From positions 1 through 41,419 of the forward strand of contig JAUYIQ010000056.1 in NCBI GenBank assembly GCA_030688205.1: a stretch of 41,419 nt of DNA, in the 5' to 3' direction. The position numbers and the translations under genes were made by a program. This DNA comes from Candidatus Curtissbacteria bacterium. GTDB taxonomy: Bacteria; Patescibacteriota; Microgenomatia; Curtissbacterales; GWA2-41-24. Shown piece by piece: positions 132 through 37,347 of the stretch. Position 1 is the first letter of the stretch. Each line of letters opens with the position of its first letter. Under the pieces are notes generated by a model. The model worked only from the letters and a program-made list of their open reading frames with translations. It ran no database searches and was not told where the DNA came from.

Positions 132-1637
132 ATGCGAGTAAATGTTTTAAAAGGCGTCAAACTTTCTGATCTTAAGTGCGAGGTTTTGGTGGTCGGGGTT
201 TTGCCCGGTACGAAATTTGCATCGGATAAAGCAATTCGGGAGGTTGATGAGCTGACCGATGGTGCAATGCTGAGATATCTTTCGAAAAACGAGAAATTCG
301 GTAAAACTTTAGAGGTAGTTCCTTTTCATATCTCCCCAAAAAAACACAAGTTTGTCGAAAAAGTTATTCTTCTTGGGATGGGGAGTTTTGATAATTTGGA
401 CAATTACAAGCTAAGACAAGTTGCTGCATATGCGGGGAAAAATAAAGGAAAGGACACAAAAAGCGTCGCATTTTCACTTCCTGCTGCGGTATCAGTTGCT
501 GATAAGATTGAACTTTTGGTGATTGGGTTTTTGGATGGGAATTTCGATTCGGGGCATCATAAGACCAAACAGGGACACCACCTTGAGTTTGAAGAGCTGG
601 TAATTTTGAGTGACAAAGCTTCAGGCGACATTCAAAAGAGAGTGGATAGAGCACTTATTATTGCAGATTCCATACACAAAGTAAGAGAAGTTGTGAATCA
701 ACCTGCAAATATTGCAACCCCAGAATATTTGGTCAGTTTTGCTAAAAAGATTGCAGCTTCTGAGCAGCTAAAAATTCAAGTATTTTCAGAAAAACAGGTA
801 AACGAGATGGGTATGGGAATTATGGCATCTGTTGCCAAAGGGTCCGATCAGGATCTTTACTTTGTTGTTATGAGATATTTGGGAGCCGGATCTGCCGGGC
901 CAACACTGGCACTTGTGGGGAAAGGCATCACTTTTGATTCCGGTGGAATTTCAATTAAACCCGGAGAGCAAATGGACTGGATGAAGATGGATATGGCAGG
1001 AGCAGCGAGCTGTTTTGGGGCAATGGAAGCGATTTCTAAGCTGAAACCCAAAGTAAATGTAATTGTTGCATGCCCGCTGACTGAAAACTTGCCATCAGGA
1101 AAAGCATCAAAACCGGGAGATGTGGTAAAGGGGCTTTCCGGAAAAACAGTCGAGATTATAAATACAGACGCAGAAGGAAGACTGGTTCTTTCTGATGCTC
1201 TAACCTATGTTCAAAAAAACTTCAAGCCGGACTACATTGTGGATGTAGCTACCCTGACTGGTGCAGTTGTTGTTGCTTTGGGTAATTTGGCAACAGGAGC
1301 GATGGGCAGACCGCAGGAATTCATTGAAGAGGTAATCAAAGCAGGGGAGGCAACCGGTGAGCGAATATGGCAGTTGCCACTTTACGATGAGTACAAGGAA
1401 CTTATAAAAAGCTACATTGCAGATATTGCAAATCTTTCTTCAGGAAAAGGAGCCGGAGCTCAAACAGCTGCAAAGTTTTTGGAAGATTTTGTTGACAGGG
1501 GTCAAAAATGGGTGCATTTGGATATAGCATCAACTGCTTGGGAAGAGTCTGATAAGCCTTATTGTGCAAAAGGCGCAACAGGATCTTCTGTGACAACGCT
1601 GGTTGAATTGGCGATGAATTTGGAGAGGGGAATATGA
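132..1637 (+). CDS. pepA: leucyl aminopeptidase (M17 family)
   Basis: 501-aa ORF carrying the M17 signature NTDAEGRLVL and the VGKGITFDSGGISIKP metal/substrate motif. Confidence 0.93.
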   Translation: MRVNVLKGVKLSDLKCEVLVVGVLPGTKFASDKAIREVDELTDGAMLRYLSKNEKFGKTLEVVPFHISPKKHKFVEKVILLGMGSFDNLDNYKLRQVAAYAGKNKGKDTKSVAFSLPAAVSVADKIELLVIGFLDGNFDSGHHKTKQGHHLEFEELVILSDKASGDIQKRVDRALIIADSIHKVREVVNQPANIATPEYLVSFAKKIAASEQLKIQVFSEKQVNEMGMGIMASVAKGSDQDLYFVVMRYLGAGSAGPTLALVGKGITFDSGGISIKPGEQMDWMKMDMAGAASCFGAMEAISKLKPKVNVIVACPLTENLPSGKASKPGDVVKGLSGKTVEIINTDAEGRLVLSDALTYVQKNFKPDYIVDVATLTGAVVVALGNLATGAMGRPQEFIEEVIKAGEATGERIWQLPLYDEYKELIKSYIADIANLSSGKGAGAQTAAKFLEDFVDRGQKWVHLDIASTAWEESDKPYCAKGATGSSVTTLVELAMNLERGI

Positions 1638-7876: not shown

Positions 7877-8617
7877 ATGAGTGGACATTCAAAATGGTCG
7901 ACGATTAAGCGCCAAAAGGGTGCTACAGACGCCAAACGCGGACAGGTTTTTACAAAGCTTGGAATGGCGATTGCTATTGCAGCGCGTGAGGGTGGAGGAG
8001 GAGATCCGGCTAGCAATTTCAAGCTGAGGCTTGTTATGGAGCAAGCAAGAGCTGCCAACATGCCTAAGGAAAATATTCAGAGGGCTGTTGACAGAGGACT
8101 AGGTAAGGGAGGAGCTGGTCAGTTGGAGTCGGTGGTTTATGAGGGTTATGGTCCCGGAAAGGTAGCTTTTATAGTTGAGGCGGCTACCGATAACAAAAAT
8201 AGAACTACCGGAGAAGTTAAAAGTACGATTGAAAAGTCAGGCGGAAGCTTTGTTTCTCCAGGAACTGTTTCCTGGATGTTTGTTGATGAAGGGGTAATTG
8301 TTATTCCAAAAGAGGAGCGGGCAATGGATGAATTTCTGGATTTGGCAATTGAAGCTGGAGCAGAGGATGTTGCAGACATAGGAGAAGTTGTAGAGATCTA
8401 TACAAAACCTACTACGCTCGAGTCGGTTAAGAGGGTTTTGGAAGAAAAAGGGCTTGTTATACAAAGTGCGGAAATTTCCAAAAAACCTACAACGACGGTT
8501 GAAATTACAGATGAAGCTATTGCCAGGCGAATTGTTGATTTGATGGATAAACTGGAAGAAATGGGTGATGTGGTTCGGGTTCACTCCAACGCAGATTTTG
8601 AAGATAACGTTTTTTAG
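7877..8617 (+). CDS. yebC: YebC/PmpR family DNA-binding transcriptional regulator
   Basis: The N-terminus MSGHSKWSTIKRQKGATDAKRG is diagnostic of the family. 246 aa. Confidence 0.95.
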   Translation: MSGHSKWSTIKRQKGATDAKRGQVFTKLGMAIAIAAREGGGGDPASNFKLRLVMEQARAANMPKENIQRAVDRGLGKGGAGQLESVVYEGYGPGKVAFIVEAATDNKNRTTGEVKSTIEKSGGSFVSPGTVSWMFVDEGVIVIPKEERAMDEFLDLAIEAGAEDVADIGEVVEIYTKPTTLESVKRVLEEKGLVIQSAEISKKPTTTVEITDEAIARRIVDLMDKLEEMGDVVRVHSNADFEDNVF

Positions 8618-8817
8618 CCTTGTGGCAATGCGAGCTCTGCAGGGTCAGGAATTATTCTTATTTTTCTTCCAGTCCGAGTTGTTAGGAAGGGTTTATATCC
8701 GCTTACATCGAATAGGTTTGTGGGATTGGTTAGGTCGGGTTTTGTCCCAGTTTCGACTTTTTGGCCATTACCAATAGCCATTCTTTTACCACCGTCGCCG
8801 TTAGCTTCTGGTGTCAT
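8614..8817 (-). CDS. hypothetical 67-aa protein
   Basis: An ORF lying downstream of the hexokinase-like gene on the same strand. A TATCAT box (8825-8830) sits exactly 7 nt upstream of its ATG, as at other genes here. No recognisable motif. Confidence 0.4.
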   Translation of the reverse strand: MTPEANGDGGKRMAIGNGQKVETGTKPDLTNPTNLFDVSGYKPFLTTRTGRKIRIIPDPAELALPQG

Positions 8818-8898: not shown

Positions 8899-9966
8899 CT
8901 AGCTGACAAGTTTGGCGGCCCCCAGTATTTCACTGTCTTCAATTTTGGCGAATTTAGTTCTGTATTCCGGCGCGAGTTGCTTTAAATACCTTTCTATTTT
9001 TGGTCTGAGGCTGTGCCAGAACAGGCTTCCTTCCATAACAAAAACGAGGTCTCTTTGGGAAAAATCGGTGATTGCTGCCATTGCCGAAGCAACGAGTCCT
9101 GCAGATTTCTCAAAAAGATAACGGGCGATTTCTGAAGGCTCGCCCAGGTTTTTGTTGGCAAGGGCATTTAACTGAGCGGTTGAGGTAATCTGTTTGTGCT
9201 GTATGTTTTTGTTTTTGAGGATTTGGTCAAATTGCTTAAAAAGATAAGCACCCGCAGTTTCTTTTTCAAAAAGATATTTGTTTTTTTGTGTTGACTGGCG
9301 GTCAATCTGTTTTGTTTCTTCGCTGACTGGGAATTTATCGAAATTACCGGACTCCAAGTTTACGAGCTGTTCACTATCTAAAAAGATTGAAAAGTTAATA
9401 CCTGTGCCTACAACGCCTGCCGCAATCTGATTCCATGAATATTGGGTAAGCGCGGAGAGTAATAAGGCTATGGTGTCGTTGGCTACTGCCACTTTAATTG
9501 CCTTTTTTGATTTTTGAAGAATATAGTTTTCAATTTCTTCGCCAACTTTTTTTCCTGTAAGACCATCGAACAGATGTTCTTTCGTGCCGGAGATAAGAAC
9601 TCCGTCAAGTCGACTGTCTCGAAGAATTGGTTTTATGGGAAAGGTGAAATTGAGAGCAAGAGTTTTTGTTTCCTCATCGAGATTTTTCCTGATAAACTCT
9701 AAAAAATCAGCCTTCGTTTTGAAAGTACTTGCGTACATTTCCTGTTTTTGCAGAATTTTTAATTTTCCACTTTGGTATTTAACTTTTGCTTCTTTGCAGA
9801 CCGTACCGCCAGTTACAATCACTTGAAAAATTTCGTTTTCTTTCACTATTTTTGTTTGTGGAAGCTGATGAACTATAAAGGCAAGGCTGGTTTCTTTGCC
9901 TGTTTTGGCTGCCTTTAATTCTTTAAGGAAATTATTACGGACTGTTTTTAATGTTTTGATGTCCAT
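8899..9966 (-). CDS. hexokinase-family sugar kinase (eukaryote-type hexokinase fold)
   Basis: Matches the hexokinase motif series: LALNFTFPIKP (LGFTFSFP), VANDTIALLLS (NDTVGTL), GVVGTGINFS (GTGTNA), FEKETAGAYL (FEKMISGMYLGE), VMEGSLF (DGSVY). Confidence 0.75.
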   Translation of the reverse strand: MDIKTLKTVRNNFLKELKAAKTGKETSLAFIVHQLPQTKIVKENEIFQVIVTGGTVCKEAKVKYQSGKLKILQKQEMYASTFKTKADFLEFIRKNLDEETKTLALNFTFPIKPILRDSRLDGVLISGTKEHLFDGLTGKKVGEEIENYILQKSKKAIKVAVANDTIALLLSALTQYSWNQIAAGVVGTGINFSIFLDSEQLVNLESGNFDKFPVSEETKQIDRQSTQKNKYLFEKETAGAYLFKQFDQILKNKNIQHKQITSTAQLNALANKNLGEPSEIARYLFEKSAGLVASAMAAITDFSQRDLVFVMEGSLFWHSLRPKIERYLKQLAPEYRTKFAKIEDSEILGAAKLVS

Positions 9967-9968
9967 AT

Positions 9969-10745
9969 TTAATATATTCTGGCTGTTTGTGGAACGTTAT
10001 TTGTATATTCAGCAGTTCTAACTGGTGAAAAGTCAACGTCTATTCCTTGTTGTAGAAGACCAAGCCAAACTCCGCCTACACAGCCTTGTGTTACCAGATC
10101 CTGATTTGCTAAAAAGTTATCAACTGCAAGTCGGGCGTCTTGTCCAATTTTATCTCTTATTCTGTCTGCATAACATCTTATACTGTCGTGGAATTGTTCG
10201 AAAGGCAGAGATTTATTTTGTGGGTCTAGAGGGTTGAATACTGAAAAAAATCTTGAGTACTCGGTATCAGCTGAATCAAAGTGAAGTCTAAGTCCTCCAA
10301 CTTGGGCAGTTTTGGTACCAGCCTGTTTTAATATGTCTCCTATTTCTTGCCATGTTAGATCTGGTCTTGCCCGATAGATACCGTCCTCGTCTTTGTGCAG
10401 TAGGCTTATGGGTTCTGGAGTGCAGTAGTAAGTTTTAACAAAATAAAGCGTTCCGGAATGGGGTATTCTAATAGGTAGCTCGTCGATATCGCGGGATGCT
10501 TCAAACACTAAAAGCGGACTTCCATTTGCCAAGCTGCTTGCAATAAATTCGTCCCTTTGTTGTTGGTAAGCTTGCGGGCTTTCGTATTTTCCTGCGAAAA
10601 GACCATCAGTGTTGCTTGCAAAAAAAGGATGAACAAGAACTTGGAGCGTGCCATCGGTATTCTGAAGTCCACTTTTAAGAGGTGTGAGTTCTTCTGCAGA
10701 TGCTTTTTGTAAATCGACTAGTGTTAGTTGGGAAAGTTTTTCCAT
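9969..10745 (-). CDS. hypothetical protein
   Basis: 258-aa ORF only 2 nt upstream of the hexokinase-like gene. No recognisable motif. Confidence 0.65.
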   Translation of the reverse strand: MEKLSQLTLVDLQKASAEELTPLKSGLQNTDGTLQVLVHPFFASNTDGLFAGKYESPQAYQQQRDEFIASSLANGSPLLVFEASRDIDELPIRIPHSGTLYFVKTYYCTPEPISLLHKDEDGIYRARPDLTWQEIGDILKQAGTKTAQVGGLRLHFDSADTEYSRFFSVFNPLDPQNKSLPFEQFHDSIRCYADRIRDKIGQDARLAVDNFLANQDLVTQGCVGGVWLGLLQQGIDVDFSPVRTAEYTNNVPQTARIY

Positions 10746-29970: not shown

Positions 29971-29995
29971 AAAAAAAGAAGCCCCGAGAGGCTTC
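29971..29995 (-). terminator. intrinsic terminator downstream of gyrA
   Basis: Minus strand: GAAGCC-tctcgg-GGCTTC followed by T7. Confidence 0.7.
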
Positions 29996-30048
29996 CTATC
30001 TTTATACCAACTTCCTTAATATCTATGCGCATTTATTAAACATAGATT

Positions 30049-32568
30049 TTAACTTTTTTTGGCATTTTTGACAACTTTTGGTGGGGTTGGAATCTGCGCT
30101 TTCACTTCTTCTTCGTCTTTCCTTTTCTGGATAACAGTTGTTGCTGCCACTTTGTCTGCAAGCCCAAGTCGCATAACAATGACTCCTTGCGTGTCTCGGG
30201 TTAAGCGTGGAATTGAACGCAGAGTTGTTCTTATCACTTGACCTTTTTGTGAAGTGATAATGAGGGCTTCGTCGTCTTTTGTTAGGACTTGTGCCGTTAC
30301 AATGTCACCCGTTTTTTCTGTAAGGTTTGCAACTTTTACTCCAACGCCTCCGCGCAGTTGTTTTGGCCAGCCAATGACCTGGGTCTTTTTGCCTATTCCT
30401 TTTTCTGTAACTACGAGTAAATCCGCTTTGTCATCGTCTCGGGATATTACGTCCATTCCAACTAACTCGTCTCCGGCTTTAATTTTAATGCCACGAACTC
30501 CCATTGTGTCTCGGGCCATCGGGCGTACGTCTTTCTCGTCGAATTTAATAGATAGTCCTTTTTTGGAAACCATAAAGACTAAATCCGAGCCGGATGTCAT
30601 TTTTGCCCATCTGAGCTTGTCACCTGGAACTAGCTTAATTGCAATTATTCCGGTTCTTCTTATTGCCTCGTACGCGGTGATCGCAGTTTTTTTAATAGTG
30701 CCGTTTTTGGTGGCCATCATCACAAAGTTTGCCTCCGTTTTTTGCTGGTTTTTAGATTTTTTGACAGGTAAAATCGAAAGAATTTTTTCCTCTTGTTGAA
30801 GTTCCAGGAGATTAACAACAGCAACACCTTTGGCAACACGGGAAGAATCCGGGAGCTCATACACTTTTAATTGGAAGACACGGCCGCGGTCGGTAAAGAA
30901 AAGAAGGTTATCGTGGGCATTGGCTACGAAAAGCTGGGCAACTACATCTTCTTCTTTGGTTGTTATTCCGGTTACTCCTTTACCGCCTCTTCGCTGAGTT
31001 CTAAAAGACCCAATGTCCTGCCTTTTTATATATCCACCTTGAGTGATGGTAACTATCGTTGGTTCGTTAGGGATTAAGTCTTCTTCCGAGAACTCACCTA
31101 TTTTTTGTTTGTAAACTTTTGTTCTTCTCTCGTCTCCGAAGCGTTCTTTTAATTTTAATAGTTCGCTTTTGGCAACTTCTAAAATCTTTTCGGGATGCGC
31201 AAGCAGATCTTCCAGGTATGCAATTTCTTCTCTTGTCATAGCCAACTCCTCTTCTATTTTTTGTCTTTCCAATGCTGCCAGACGTTTGAGCTGCATGTCC
31301 AAAATTGCCAGAGATTGAAGTTCCGACAACTTGAACTTGCGCATGAGGTTTTCTTTTGCGTCACTTTGGTCTTTACTCTTTTTGATTGTTTCGATAACTT
31401 CGTCAATGTTGTCGACTGCGATTTTCAATCCTTCCAGGATGTGTTCTCTGGCTTTTGCAGAGTCGAGGTCAAATTGGCTCCTTCTGGTGATTACACTTTG
31501 TCTGTGCTTTATAAACTCTTCCAAAATCATCTTGAGGGTAAGAGTTTGTGGTATGCCTTTTACGAGGGCGACCATGTTGACAGAGAAGGAACCTTGCAGT
31601 GCAGTGTGTTTGTAGAGATTATTCAAAACAGACTGTGGTCTAGCATCTCGTTTGAGTTCGACGACTACTCGAAGGCCTTTTCTGTCGGATTCGTCGCGAA
31701 GATCTGAAATGCCTTCCATTTTCTTGTCTTTAACTAGCTCTGCAATTCTGGTTACAAGAGTTGCTTTGTTCACCTGATACGGAATTTCGGTGACTATGAT
31801 TTGGAACTTGCCGCTTATTGATTCTTCAATTTCTGCTTTTGCTCTCATCAAGACTCTCCCTCTGCCAGTTGCGTAGGCTGCCGTTATTTCTGATGCGTCA
31901 TAAATCTGGGCGCCTGTCGGGAAATCAGGGCCTTTGACAAATTGCATAAGGTCTTCGACTGTTGCTGCCGGATTCTTTATCAAGTGAATTGTGGCGTCGA
32001 CGATTTCGTTTAGATTGTGAGGAGGTATGTTTGTTGCCATGCCGACTGCGATTCCCGAGGTGCCATTAACTAAAAGATTTGGAAGGGCTGAGGGCATAAA
32101 CGTTGGTTCTTTGAGGGTGCCGTCGAAATTGTCCACGAAGTCGACTGTGTTTTTGTCCAAGTCGTAGAGGAGGGTTTCTGAAATCAAGGCTAGCCGACAT
32201 TCTGTATAACGCATTGCTGCCGGCGGATCTCCGTCGACAGATCCGAAGTTGCCTTGACCGTCTATTATGGGGTTTCGCATAGCAAAACTTTGGGCCATGC
32301 GGACTAATGCTTCGTAAACAGGAGCATCTCCGTGAGGGTGGAATTTTCCGAGGACTTCACCGACCACCTTGGCGCTTTTGCTGTAATGTGCGCTGTGGGC
32401 CAGCCCGAGACGATGCATGGCATAGACAATTCGACGGTGAACCGGTTTTAAGCCGTCGCGCACATCAGGCAGTGCTCTTGCGACTATTACCGACATTGCG
32501 TAGTCCAGGTAGGACTTTTGCATCTCGTCGATTATTTCTACTTGTTGGATTTTACCGATATCAGCCAT
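30049..32568 (-). CDS. gyrA: DNA gyrase subunit A
   Basis: 839 aa. [16 protein letters not shown] and AAMRYTE (active-site Tyr) motifs, plus a C-terminal beta-pinwheel. Confidence 0.97.
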
Positions 32569-32569
32569 T

Positions 32570-33064
32570 TTAAGAGTTCATTGGTTTTAAGGTTTCGTCT
32601 AATGCATCAGTAAATTCAAATACCATTCCTGGAAGCCTTTCTTTGTCTTCAATAAGAGGATTCGTAATCGTTGTGGTTTTATGAGAGCTAAGCAGATATG
32701 TCTCTCTCACACCGAAGATGATTTTTGGTCCTTCTATCTCCGCATTAAGGTAAATCGTCTGATTGTTTCTTACTTCGACACTTACTTCTATGCGCATAGC
32801 CATATTTTCTACTTCCTCCGGTGGTGTATCCTCTGGGAGGGATAGTTCGACCCAAACTTTTCTTGGGTCTTTAAAAAGTTTTGAAGTGTCAATTTGCCCG
32901 ACGTTTGGAGAGGCATAGAATGTTAAGTCTCCAGTTCCTGAGAGATGTATACACTCAGACCTAATTTTGCCCGAAGCGCCCTCTATTGCTTGATTAAAAG
33001 GCATAACTGGGTAATAAAAGCCAATTTCTTTTTGAGTCTGACTAGATTTTTCCGATTGATCCAT
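32570..33064 (-). CDS. hypothetical protein (gyrB-gyrA intervening gene 3)
   Basis: 164-aa ORF whose stop lies 1 nt before the gyrA ATG. No recognisable motif. Confidence 0.65.
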
Positions 33065-33066
33065 AG

Positions 33067-33390
33067 CTATACTAATTTTTTAAGTAATAAGCCGGATGTA
33101 GAGAGCAAAATCAGACCGATAACGATTTCTATGTATGGTGACGAAAGTCCTATTACGTTTGTGATGAAGTTTTCGACACCTAGTGCAAACATGACAAGGC
33201 CGACAGTTCCCATAATGCCGGCAACTACTTGGCTGTTTTGAATTGTATAGACAGGTTTTTTTGCAAACTCGAGTGATTTAGTTGTAGCTTGGTCTACTGT
33301 AGTTTTTGAAAGCAGACCTGTGAGTCTTTTAGCTGTCTGTTCGGTTATTGGTTTTTGCTGTAAATCGTGTTGCATTTTATTTCTCATCAA
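33067..33390 (-). CDS. hypothetical small membrane protein (gyrB-gyrA intervening gene 2)
   Basis: 107 aa. Polar N-terminus and two C-terminal TM helices (VVAGIMGTVGLVMFALGV; IEIVIGLILLSTSGLLL). Overlaps the upstream ORF by 14 nt. Confidence 0.6.
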   Translation of the reverse strand: MMRNKMQHDLQQKPITEQTAKRLTGLLSKTTVDQATTKSLEFAKKPVYTIQNSQVVAGIMGTVGLVMFALGVENFITNVIGLSSPYIEIVIGLILLSTSGLLLKKLV

Positions 33391-33993
33391 TAGTGTTTCC
33401 TTTTCTTACCTGATCAAGCATGTAATTTAGTCTTTCGAAGTTTTGTCCATTTAATGGTCCTGTTGGTTCAATTATGCGTTCTGATGCCAGCTCAGGTTCT
33501 TTTTCAATAATTGTTACGTCTTCGTTTGGATATGCTTTAAGATACGACCATGAAGGGTGTTGTACTCTGTCAATGTCTGGTTCAAGAATTTGACGCCATT
33601 CTGTGACTTGAAAAGCTCTTCCCCGATTGGATAAGTACATAGTCAAAGCTTCGGTGTAGTAAAAGTCTCCATGCAGTGTGAGCTTGGCTATTTTTGGTCG
33701 GTAAGGATCTTTGGGATTTATTTCGATGGTCAGCCATCTTTCTCCCTTGTAAGATTTAAAGTTTGATGGAAATTCGTCCGTGTATTCTTCTAGTGGTTCT
33801 CGAATTTCATCAATCAATACTTTATCAGCTGTAACAAGTGAATATTCATCGTTTCTTCTGTCTGTTGTAAAAGCGTACTTTTTGCGATCTAATCCGTAGT
33901 CTATTGCTTTTTCTCTGAAGACTGCTGACCATGCTTTGAAATGGGCTTTCATGATATCTGGTTGTATTTCTAAATTTTCAGGTGACCTGTCCA

Positions 33994-33994
<1 letters not shown>
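33377..33994 (-). CDS. hypothetical protein (gyrB-gyrA intervening gene 1)
   Basis: 205-aa ORF. Its ATG overlaps the gyrB TAA by 1 nt (TAATG). No recognisable motif. Confidence 0.65.
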
Positions 33995-37265
<3,271 letters not shown>

Positions 37266-37289: not shown

Positions 37290-37317
37290 GTTTTACAGAA
37301 GCGGGCCATTCTGTCAA
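37290..37317 (-). promoter_or_regulatory. candidate gyrB promoter TTGACA-16 nt-TAAAAC
   Basis: Perfect -35 at 37312-37317 and -10 at 37290-37295 (minus strand), between the holB-like stop and gyrB. Confidence 0.5.
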
Positions 37318-37347
37318 TTTTACCAGATTTAGTGAGGCTATTGCAAG

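Follow-up and report, generated by a model that had tools for sequence, protein, structure and literature searches.

Why should three genes of no recognisable family stand between gyrB and gyrA, inside the operon that encodes DNA gyrase? This question is raised by a 41,419-nucleotide stretch of DNA from Candidatus Curtissbacteria bacterium, a member of the Patescibacteriota (NCBI GenBank assembly GCA_030688205.1, contig JAUYIQ010000056.1, positions 1 to 41,419; the whole stretch is hereafter the window). Its open reading frame (ORF) list and sequence give the minus-strand order gyrB (with an intein), ORF1, ORF2, ORF3 and gyrA. A sequence-only reading of the locus had held that the three proteins are made stoichiometrically with gyrase from one transcript, and had suggested that they could be a gyrase-associated accessory or regulatory module or a membrane tether for gyrase. 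From the comparison with relatives described below, we favour with moderate confidence the explanation that in Candidatus Curtissbacteria the gyrase operon contains a variable cassette site, the gyrB–gyrA spacer, and that its cassettes are exchangeable.

Our comparison covered 80 gyrA loci of species-representative genomes, six metagenome loci reached through an alignment of ORF2, and contigs carrying members of the ORF1 family. An arrangement with gyrB directly upstream of gyrA and ORF1-3 families in between was found in close relatives only, whose GyrB C-terminal region is 75-90% and whose GyrA N-terminal region is 76-94% identical to that of the window; the gyrA neighbourhoods of ~70 other Patescibacteria contained none of the three families. 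Among 15 Curtissbacteria, the gyrB–gyrA spacer ranges from 231 to 1499 base pairs and has at least nine different contents (Table 1), with the order ORF1-ORF2-ORF3 occurring in the window alone. A fixed three-gene module or an obligate gyrase subunit would be expected to keep the same order throughout the clade. This was not observed: relatives carry subsets, another order, another gene or nothing. The spacers instead show what is expected of a variable islet: the same flanking core genes, variable content and an empty site. Because subsets and order vary, and the site can be empty, in relatives with 75-94% identical gyrase, ORF1-3 are dispensable and mutually independent. The cassettes are therefore dispensable add-ons rather than stoichiometric gyrase subunits.

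The cassettes also diverge far faster than the gyrase genes that flank them. ORF2 homologues are 45-67% and proteins at the third position 19-71% identical to the window copies; in locus L082 (L numbers denote the loci compared), the third-position protein is 27% identical to its window counterpart and gyrase is 90-94% identical. Comparison of the window with L001 revealed a mosaic. In ORF3, 75% of the codons for conserved residues are identical, compared with 48% in ORF2, the gyrB tail and the gyrA head on either side taken together (Fisher p=2.7e-6), and synonymous divergence (dS) is 0.54 in ORF3 and at least 1.7 in the flanks. This lower synonymous divergence suggests that the two loci have shared the ORF3 allele more recently than its surroundings.

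We observed further footprints of exchange at the ends of the gyrase genes. Beyond the true stop of gyrB, the last 8-9 codons of the gene (AKNATLD[IV] and the stop) recur as relic copies in several relatives. One of them is fused in frame to the C-terminus of an ORF1 homologue, and two end homologous 42-amino acid mini-ORFs (Table 1). A larger duplication, in which these mini-ORFs would copy the last ~120 nucleotides of gyrB in full, was considered and rejected, as no more than the last 8-9 codons can be recognised in the copies. In L003, a 12-codon duplicate of the gyrA head (9266-9300 versus 10001-10035) brackets the TrpR-like cassette, as does a pair of 31-nucleotide palindromic direct repeats (9379-9409 versus 9872-9902). 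Most differences between the relic copies and the resident ends fall at third codon positions and are synonymous, a pattern that descent from other alleles of gyrB or gyrA would produce. Together, the duplicated ends in relatives and the ORF3 mosaic are the signs of horizontal exchange at the flanks, and from them we infer recombination through the gyrase ends.

These observations suggest a model in which the spacer would hold up to three independent, lineage-restricted accessory genes, with the window having all three. The cassettes would be read from the gyrase transcript, so that their expression is guaranteed by an essential operon, and they may be gained, lost, reordered and swapped among lineages by recombination in which the conserved ends of the gyrase genes, 3' in gyrB and 5' in gyrA, serve as homology arms. 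Imperfect events of this kind would leave duplicated gyrB and gyrA ends behind. Our best guess is that the cassettes encode putative fast-turnover accessory or conflict-type proteins, and the leading specific possibility is a predicted role of the two acidic ones, ORF1 and ORF3, directed at gyrase or another DNA-binding protein. Whatever the cassettes do, the locus shows that a site for interchangeable cassettes can exist inside an essential two-gene operon, where recombination through the ultra-conserved gyrB and gyrA ends apparently serves it – a compact example of how the reduced genomes of the Candidate Phyla Radiation (CPR) may gain and exchange accessory genes in the absence of dedicated mobility genes.

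Several points weigh against the cassette-site explanation. ORF2 and ORF3 relatives were seen only in the gyrB–gyrA spacer (10 of 10 loci for each family), in searches outside it that were pattern-limited and leave absence there unproven. In 7 of 14 sampled contexts, an ORF1 relative immediately follows gyrB; one of these is L099, where the next gene is murC instead of gyrA. Linkage of this kind, for all three families, may stem from a genuine functional connection with gyrase as opposed to simple hitch-hiking. Moreover, the window's own spacer has neither a mobility gene (integrase or transposase) nor att or direct repeats, and the recombination model consequently rests on relatives. The proposed association with gyrase thus survives in part: ORF2 and ORF3 were seen only in the spacer and ORF1 is enriched after gyrB, but no trio is conserved across relatives and half the contexts sampled for the ORF1 family have nothing to do with gyrase. 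Since the families are confined to a narrow clade, synteny alone does not demonstrate a functional link.

Table 1. Features of the gyrase operon in the window, contents of gyrB–gyrA spacers, relic gyrB ends and other contexts of ORF1 relatives. In spacer contents, 1, 2 and 3 denote ORF1, ORF2 and ORF3; aa, amino acids; nt, nucleotides.
Locus	Feature	Position (nt)	Strand	Description
Window	gyrB	33994..37224	-	1076 aa; Pfam DNA_gyraseB, Toprim, DNA_gyraseB_C/GyrB_C, Intein_splicing
Window	gyrB intein	~34606-35880	-	~425 aa (~aa 449-873); Pfam Intein_splicing, weak HNH_3
Window	ORF1	33377..33994	-	205 aa; acidic soluble alpha/beta protein
Window	ORF2	33067..33390	-	107 aa from TTG; 102-106 aa from ATG 33375 or 33387
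Window	ORF3	32570..33064	-	164 aa; acidic soluble protein
Window	gyrA	30049..32568	-	839 aa; Pfam DNA_topoisoIV and 6 DNA_gyraseA_C repeats
Window	Terminator-like hairpin after gyrA	29976..29997	-	9-pair stem and T-run; marks operon end
Window	Promoter-like site upstream of gyrB	37317..37346	-	TTGCAA, 18-nt spacer, TAAAAT, with TG
Window	Spacer content			1-2-3
L001, L082	Spacer content			2-3
L002, L085, L086, L087	Spacer content			2-3B
L083/L084	Spacer content			1-2
L094	Spacer content			42-aa relic, then 1-2
L004	Spacer content			42-aa relic, then 3-2 (order swapped)
L091/L092	Spacer content			1-3B
L003	Spacer content			1 and a 185-aa TrpR/YerC-like gene in place of ORF2 and ORF3
L005	Spacer content			153-aa ORF3-like gene alone
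L030	Spacer content			Empty, 231 bp
L003	Extra gyrB tails	8479-8630		Two copies
L004	Extra gyrB tail	9105-9131		Ends 42-aa mini-ORF homologous to that of L094
L094	Extra gyrB tail	716-742		Ends 42-aa mini-ORF homologous to that of L004
L088	Extra gyrB tail	665-691		Fused in frame to C-terminus of ORF1 homologue
L089, L090, L093, L095/L096, L097, L098, L100	ORF1 relative			Non-gyrase context

The junctions within the operon are tight. The gyrB stop TAA and the ORF1 ATG overlap by 1 nucleotide (TAATG), ORF1 and ORF2 overlap by 14 nucleotides if ORF2 starts at TTG 33390, a gap of 2 nucleotides separates ORF2 from ORF3, and 1 nucleotide lies between the ORF3 stop and the gyrA ATG. The hairpin after gyrA is the best-scoring terminator-like hairpin of the minus strand, and none was found on that strand within 32570-33994. 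The ORF list, the sequence and the hairpin scan thus bear out the junction geometry and the single terminator after gyrA that had been described before. It is almost certain that ORF1-3 share a transcript with gyrB and gyrA and are translationally coupled to them, and the geometry of the stop/start junctions would allow coupling by termination-reinitiation. The promoter-like site before gyrB does no more than match the consensus, and such sites are no commoner in this region than in shuffled sequence. Rfam gave no match in the gyrB–gyrA region; its sole match in the whole window is a tRNA gene at 2-86 on the minus strand.

ORF1-3 are real genes and not chance ORFs, since each has homologues and a ratio of nonsynonymous to synonymous substitution rates (dN/dS) below 1 – 0.18 for ORF1, 0.15-0.18 for ORF2 and 0.35 for ORF3 – and ORF1 could be modelled with confidence. 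As the sequence-only reading had stated, none belongs to a recognisable family: Pfam, NCBIfam, PHROGs and PADLOC gave no credible match for any of the three. They are three separate families, new at the family level. A stretch shared by ORF1 and ORF3 had been taken as a hint of distant paralogy; we attribute it to chance, as BLASTP aligned the two at E=12 and hhalign comparison of the family profiles gave a probability of 0.16% (E=0.38). A full-text search of the literature returned no account of genes between gyrB and gyrA in Patescibacteria.

A word-indexed protein search found no relative of ORF1, which seemed an orphan until a full HMMER search recovered at least 44 cluster representatives, 35 of them with E<1e-10, all ~200-220 amino acids long; word-indexed searches were nearly empty because the families share few exact 5-mers. 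An AlphaFold2 model built on an alignment of 35 family members has a mean predicted local distance difference test (pLDDT) score of 94.1 and a predicted template modelling score (pTM) of 0.89, and has eight strands between an N-terminal and a C-terminal helix. Foldseek found no match to this model at E<=0.001 in PDB or BFVD (TM-scores <=0.26), which leaves the family with a confidently predicted fold that has no counterpart in either collection. Nothing related to the family was found in Pfam, PDB sequences (by profile), PHROGs or PADLOC; in PADLOC, the 35 members gave scattered single matches only, all at E>0.007. A match to SMI1/KNR4 (SUKH) was rejected, being limited to one member at E=0.027 with no PDB fold support. 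The invariant or near-invariant residues of the family are W87, G125, E85, P94, S122, P156 and R188. No Cys or His is among these alignment columns, and this speaks against a metal-dependent enzyme or nuclease.

Among ORF1 relatives, a place directly after gyrB is strongly over-represented. The seven gyrB-linked contexts are distinct from one another, and in a neighbour-joining tree of the family the members linked to gyrB form the core, with most of the others at the periphery. In one unlinked context, L093 (3-395 on the minus and 682-888 on the plus strand), a family member 43% identical to ORF1 (P0007) adjoins not gyrB but a serine-recombinase fragment and an XRE-type helix-turn-helix regulator. 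This context hints that the ORF1 family can travel with mobile elements.

The ORF2 protein is basic, with a conserved polar N-terminal region of ~50 amino acids followed by a hairpin of two transmembrane segments that ends in KKL. Its hydrophobic segments, centred near residues 63 and 90-98, agree with the earlier description of a two-transmembrane protein, and its charge distribution suggests an N-in/C-in topology. An alignment of ten homologues has 20 invariant columns. A match to PHROG phrog_5483 (E=4e-4) was made by 1 of 10 family members and was treated as noise, and a pattern-based scan of viral contigs found no ORF2 relative. The start of ORF2 is ambiguous (33373-33390). Besides TTG 33390, it could be ATG 33387, which overlaps ORF1 by 11 nucleotides and has AGGA ~10 nucleotides upstream, or ATG 33375, which gives a TAA-A-ATG junction like that of ORF3 and gyrA and a protein of 102 amino acids that fits most homologues (87-102 amino acids).

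ORF3 belongs to a fast-evolving family of ~150-180 amino acids with two subfamilies, A and B, whose profiles align over 146 columns (hhalign probability 87.6%, E=3.5e-6). Word-indexed search returned one relative, and the AlphaFold2 model, built on two input sequences, is of low confidence (pLDDT 29.6). Neither ORF1 nor ORF3 has a hydrophobic, potentially transmembrane segment. Both are acidic, with isoelectric points (pI) of 5.1 and 4.7 respectively, and the median net charge within the ORF1 family is -15. They are among only 4 of the 37 ORFs of the window with a pI <5.2, against a window median of 8.8; the pI of GyrA is 9.2 and that of GyrB 9.4. This acidity is compatible with predicted binding to basic DNA-binding surfaces, although it is only suggestive.

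The closest known parallels are variable islets, or integration hotspots, between conserved core genes, which have been described for defence and accessory islands of enterobacterial pan-genomes. The gyrB–gyrA spacer shares with them a fixed site, content that varies among close relatives, an empty site, mosaic divergence and homologous recombination at the flanks as the explanation. It differs in lying inside an essential two-gene operon of a CPR host and in holding single small cassettes coupled to gyrB and gyrA, in a window without an integrase, transposase or att-type repeat. A second parallel is the 'intronless homing' of T-even phages, in which free-standing homing-endonuclease cassettes (seg, mob) lie between conserved genes. 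Here, too, small optional genes stand between conserved essential genes; they would spread by recombination that co-converts the flanks, and footprints lie at the ends of the flanking genes. Unlike seg and mob, ORF1-3 have no detected GIY-YIG, HNH or LAGLIDADG motif and the ORF1 family lacks conserved His or Cys; nothing nearby is nuclease-like except the gyrB intein, which is a separate element.

Known gyrase modulators (GyrI/SbmC, YacG, Qnr, MfpA, CcdB and ParE) are small as well, and the acidity of ORF1 and ORF3 recalls the acidic DNA mimics MfpA and Qnr. To our knowledge, none of these modulators is encoded between gyrB and gyrA. Their dissimilarity to ORF1-3, noted before from the sequence, was upheld by Pfam and PADLOC for all three proteins and by Foldseek for ORF1. 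Qnr and MfpA are right-handed beta-helices of tandem A(D/N)LXX pentapeptide repeats; Pentapeptide families gave no match at E<=1 for ORF1-3 and none at E<=10 for 35 ORF1, 9 ORF3 and 4 ORF2 family members, and the helix-sheet-helix model of ORF1 is unlike a beta-helix. The GyrI-like small-molecule-binding or SHS2 domain of GyrI/SbmC had no Pfam match in ORF1-3, nor did the ORF1 model match it in PDB by Foldseek at E<=0.001. YacG is a GyrB-binding protein of ~60 amino acids with a Cys4 zinc finger; ORF1, ORF2 and ORF3 contain 0, 0 and 1 Cys and have no Pfam match to it. For toxins of the CcdB and ParE type, neither Pfam nor PADLOC gave a match, and the genes occur in all combinations rather than in obligate pairs. 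PADLOC likewise matched ORF1-3 to no known anti-phage system.

Gyrase is essential and has been studied intensively as a drug target, and proteins co-translated with the gyrase of an uncultivated CPR lineage are natural candidates for new gyrase regulators or protectors. It is possible, though not likely, that ORF1 and/or ORF3 are putative acidic gyrase binders that, for example, mimic DNA on the basic C-terminal domain of GyrA or bind where GyrB meets GyrA. They would modulate gyrase or protect it, for instance from phage or competitor poisons, with ORF2 as a possible membrane anchor for them or for gyrase and the variability reflecting an arms race. The coupling of the genes within the gyrase operon, the apparent confinement of the ORF2 and ORF3 families to its spacer and the charge difference between ORF1/ORF3 and gyrase all speak for this, as do ORF1 homologues that follow gyrB even where gyrA lies elsewhere (L099). 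In addition, the most conserved ORF1 motif, FLSNxGRAFQxxxW, resembles a 14-residue stretch of a GyrA C-terminal domain blade. However, the likeness is not significant (hhalign probability 7%; hmmsearch E 0.1-1), and it recurs in many gyrA ORFs that are not independent of one another. Descent of ORF1 from such a blade is not supported by these values, nor by Pfam, which gave no DNA_gyraseA_C match. The free combination and dispensability of ORF1-3 also tell against a gyrase-directed role, as do the seven ORF1-family contexts without gyrase and the missing homology to known modulators. An ORF3 that falls below 30% identity while gyrase stays at ~90% would be unexpected for a partner of the gyrase surface, unless a third party drives its change. 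A fuller form of this proposal – that the ORF1 and/or ORF3 family is a predicted new class of acidic gyrase-binding proteins, that ORF2 is their tether, that the cassettes serve an arms race and that ORF1 has a new fold – we consider doubtful. Should the cassettes turn out to be unrelated to gyrase, the locus would mainly warn that a shared operon, when seen within a narrow clade, says little about functional partnership.

That ORF2 and ORF3 form a toxin-antitoxin or abortive-infection pair parked in the gyrase operon, with ORF2 as a small membrane-hairpin effector and ORF3 as a rapidly evolving soluble sensor or antidote, appears improbable. A small basic two-transmembrane protein does stand beside a fast-evolving soluble one in 9 loci, and the content of the spacer is variable and horizontally exchanged. 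Yet ORF2 occurs without an ORF3-like gene in L083/L084 and L094, and ORF3-like genes occur without ORF2 in L091 and L005. Such a pairing also sits poorly with the fairly strong purifying selection on ORF2 and its constant co-expression with essential genes, and neither PADLOC nor Pfam gave a toxin-antitoxin or defence match. The view that ORF1-3 are non-functional, as chance ORFs or decaying spacer remnants, could appeal to the lack of database families and to the decaying relics in relatives' spacers (the mini-ORFs of L004 and L094, the gyrB tails of L003), but is effectively refuted by dN/dS values well below 1 for all three, the depth and confident model (pLDDT 94) of the ORF1 family, the invariant columns of ORF2, and the intact frames with their tight junctions.

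Outside Curtissbacteria, we observed a different conserved basic ORF of 69-72 amino acids in the gyrB–gyrA spacer of two Berkelbacteria (L031, 9566-9775; L061, 9549-9767). Lineage-specific small genes in this spacer may be more general among CPR bacteria.

In the window, the gyrB intein directly follows the GESAGG motif, where the Toprim region begins. It is missing from most close relatives (L002-L005, L082-L085, L087 and L091), whose gyrB aligns across the intein junction; in L086, gyrB has an insertion of equal size at the intein position.

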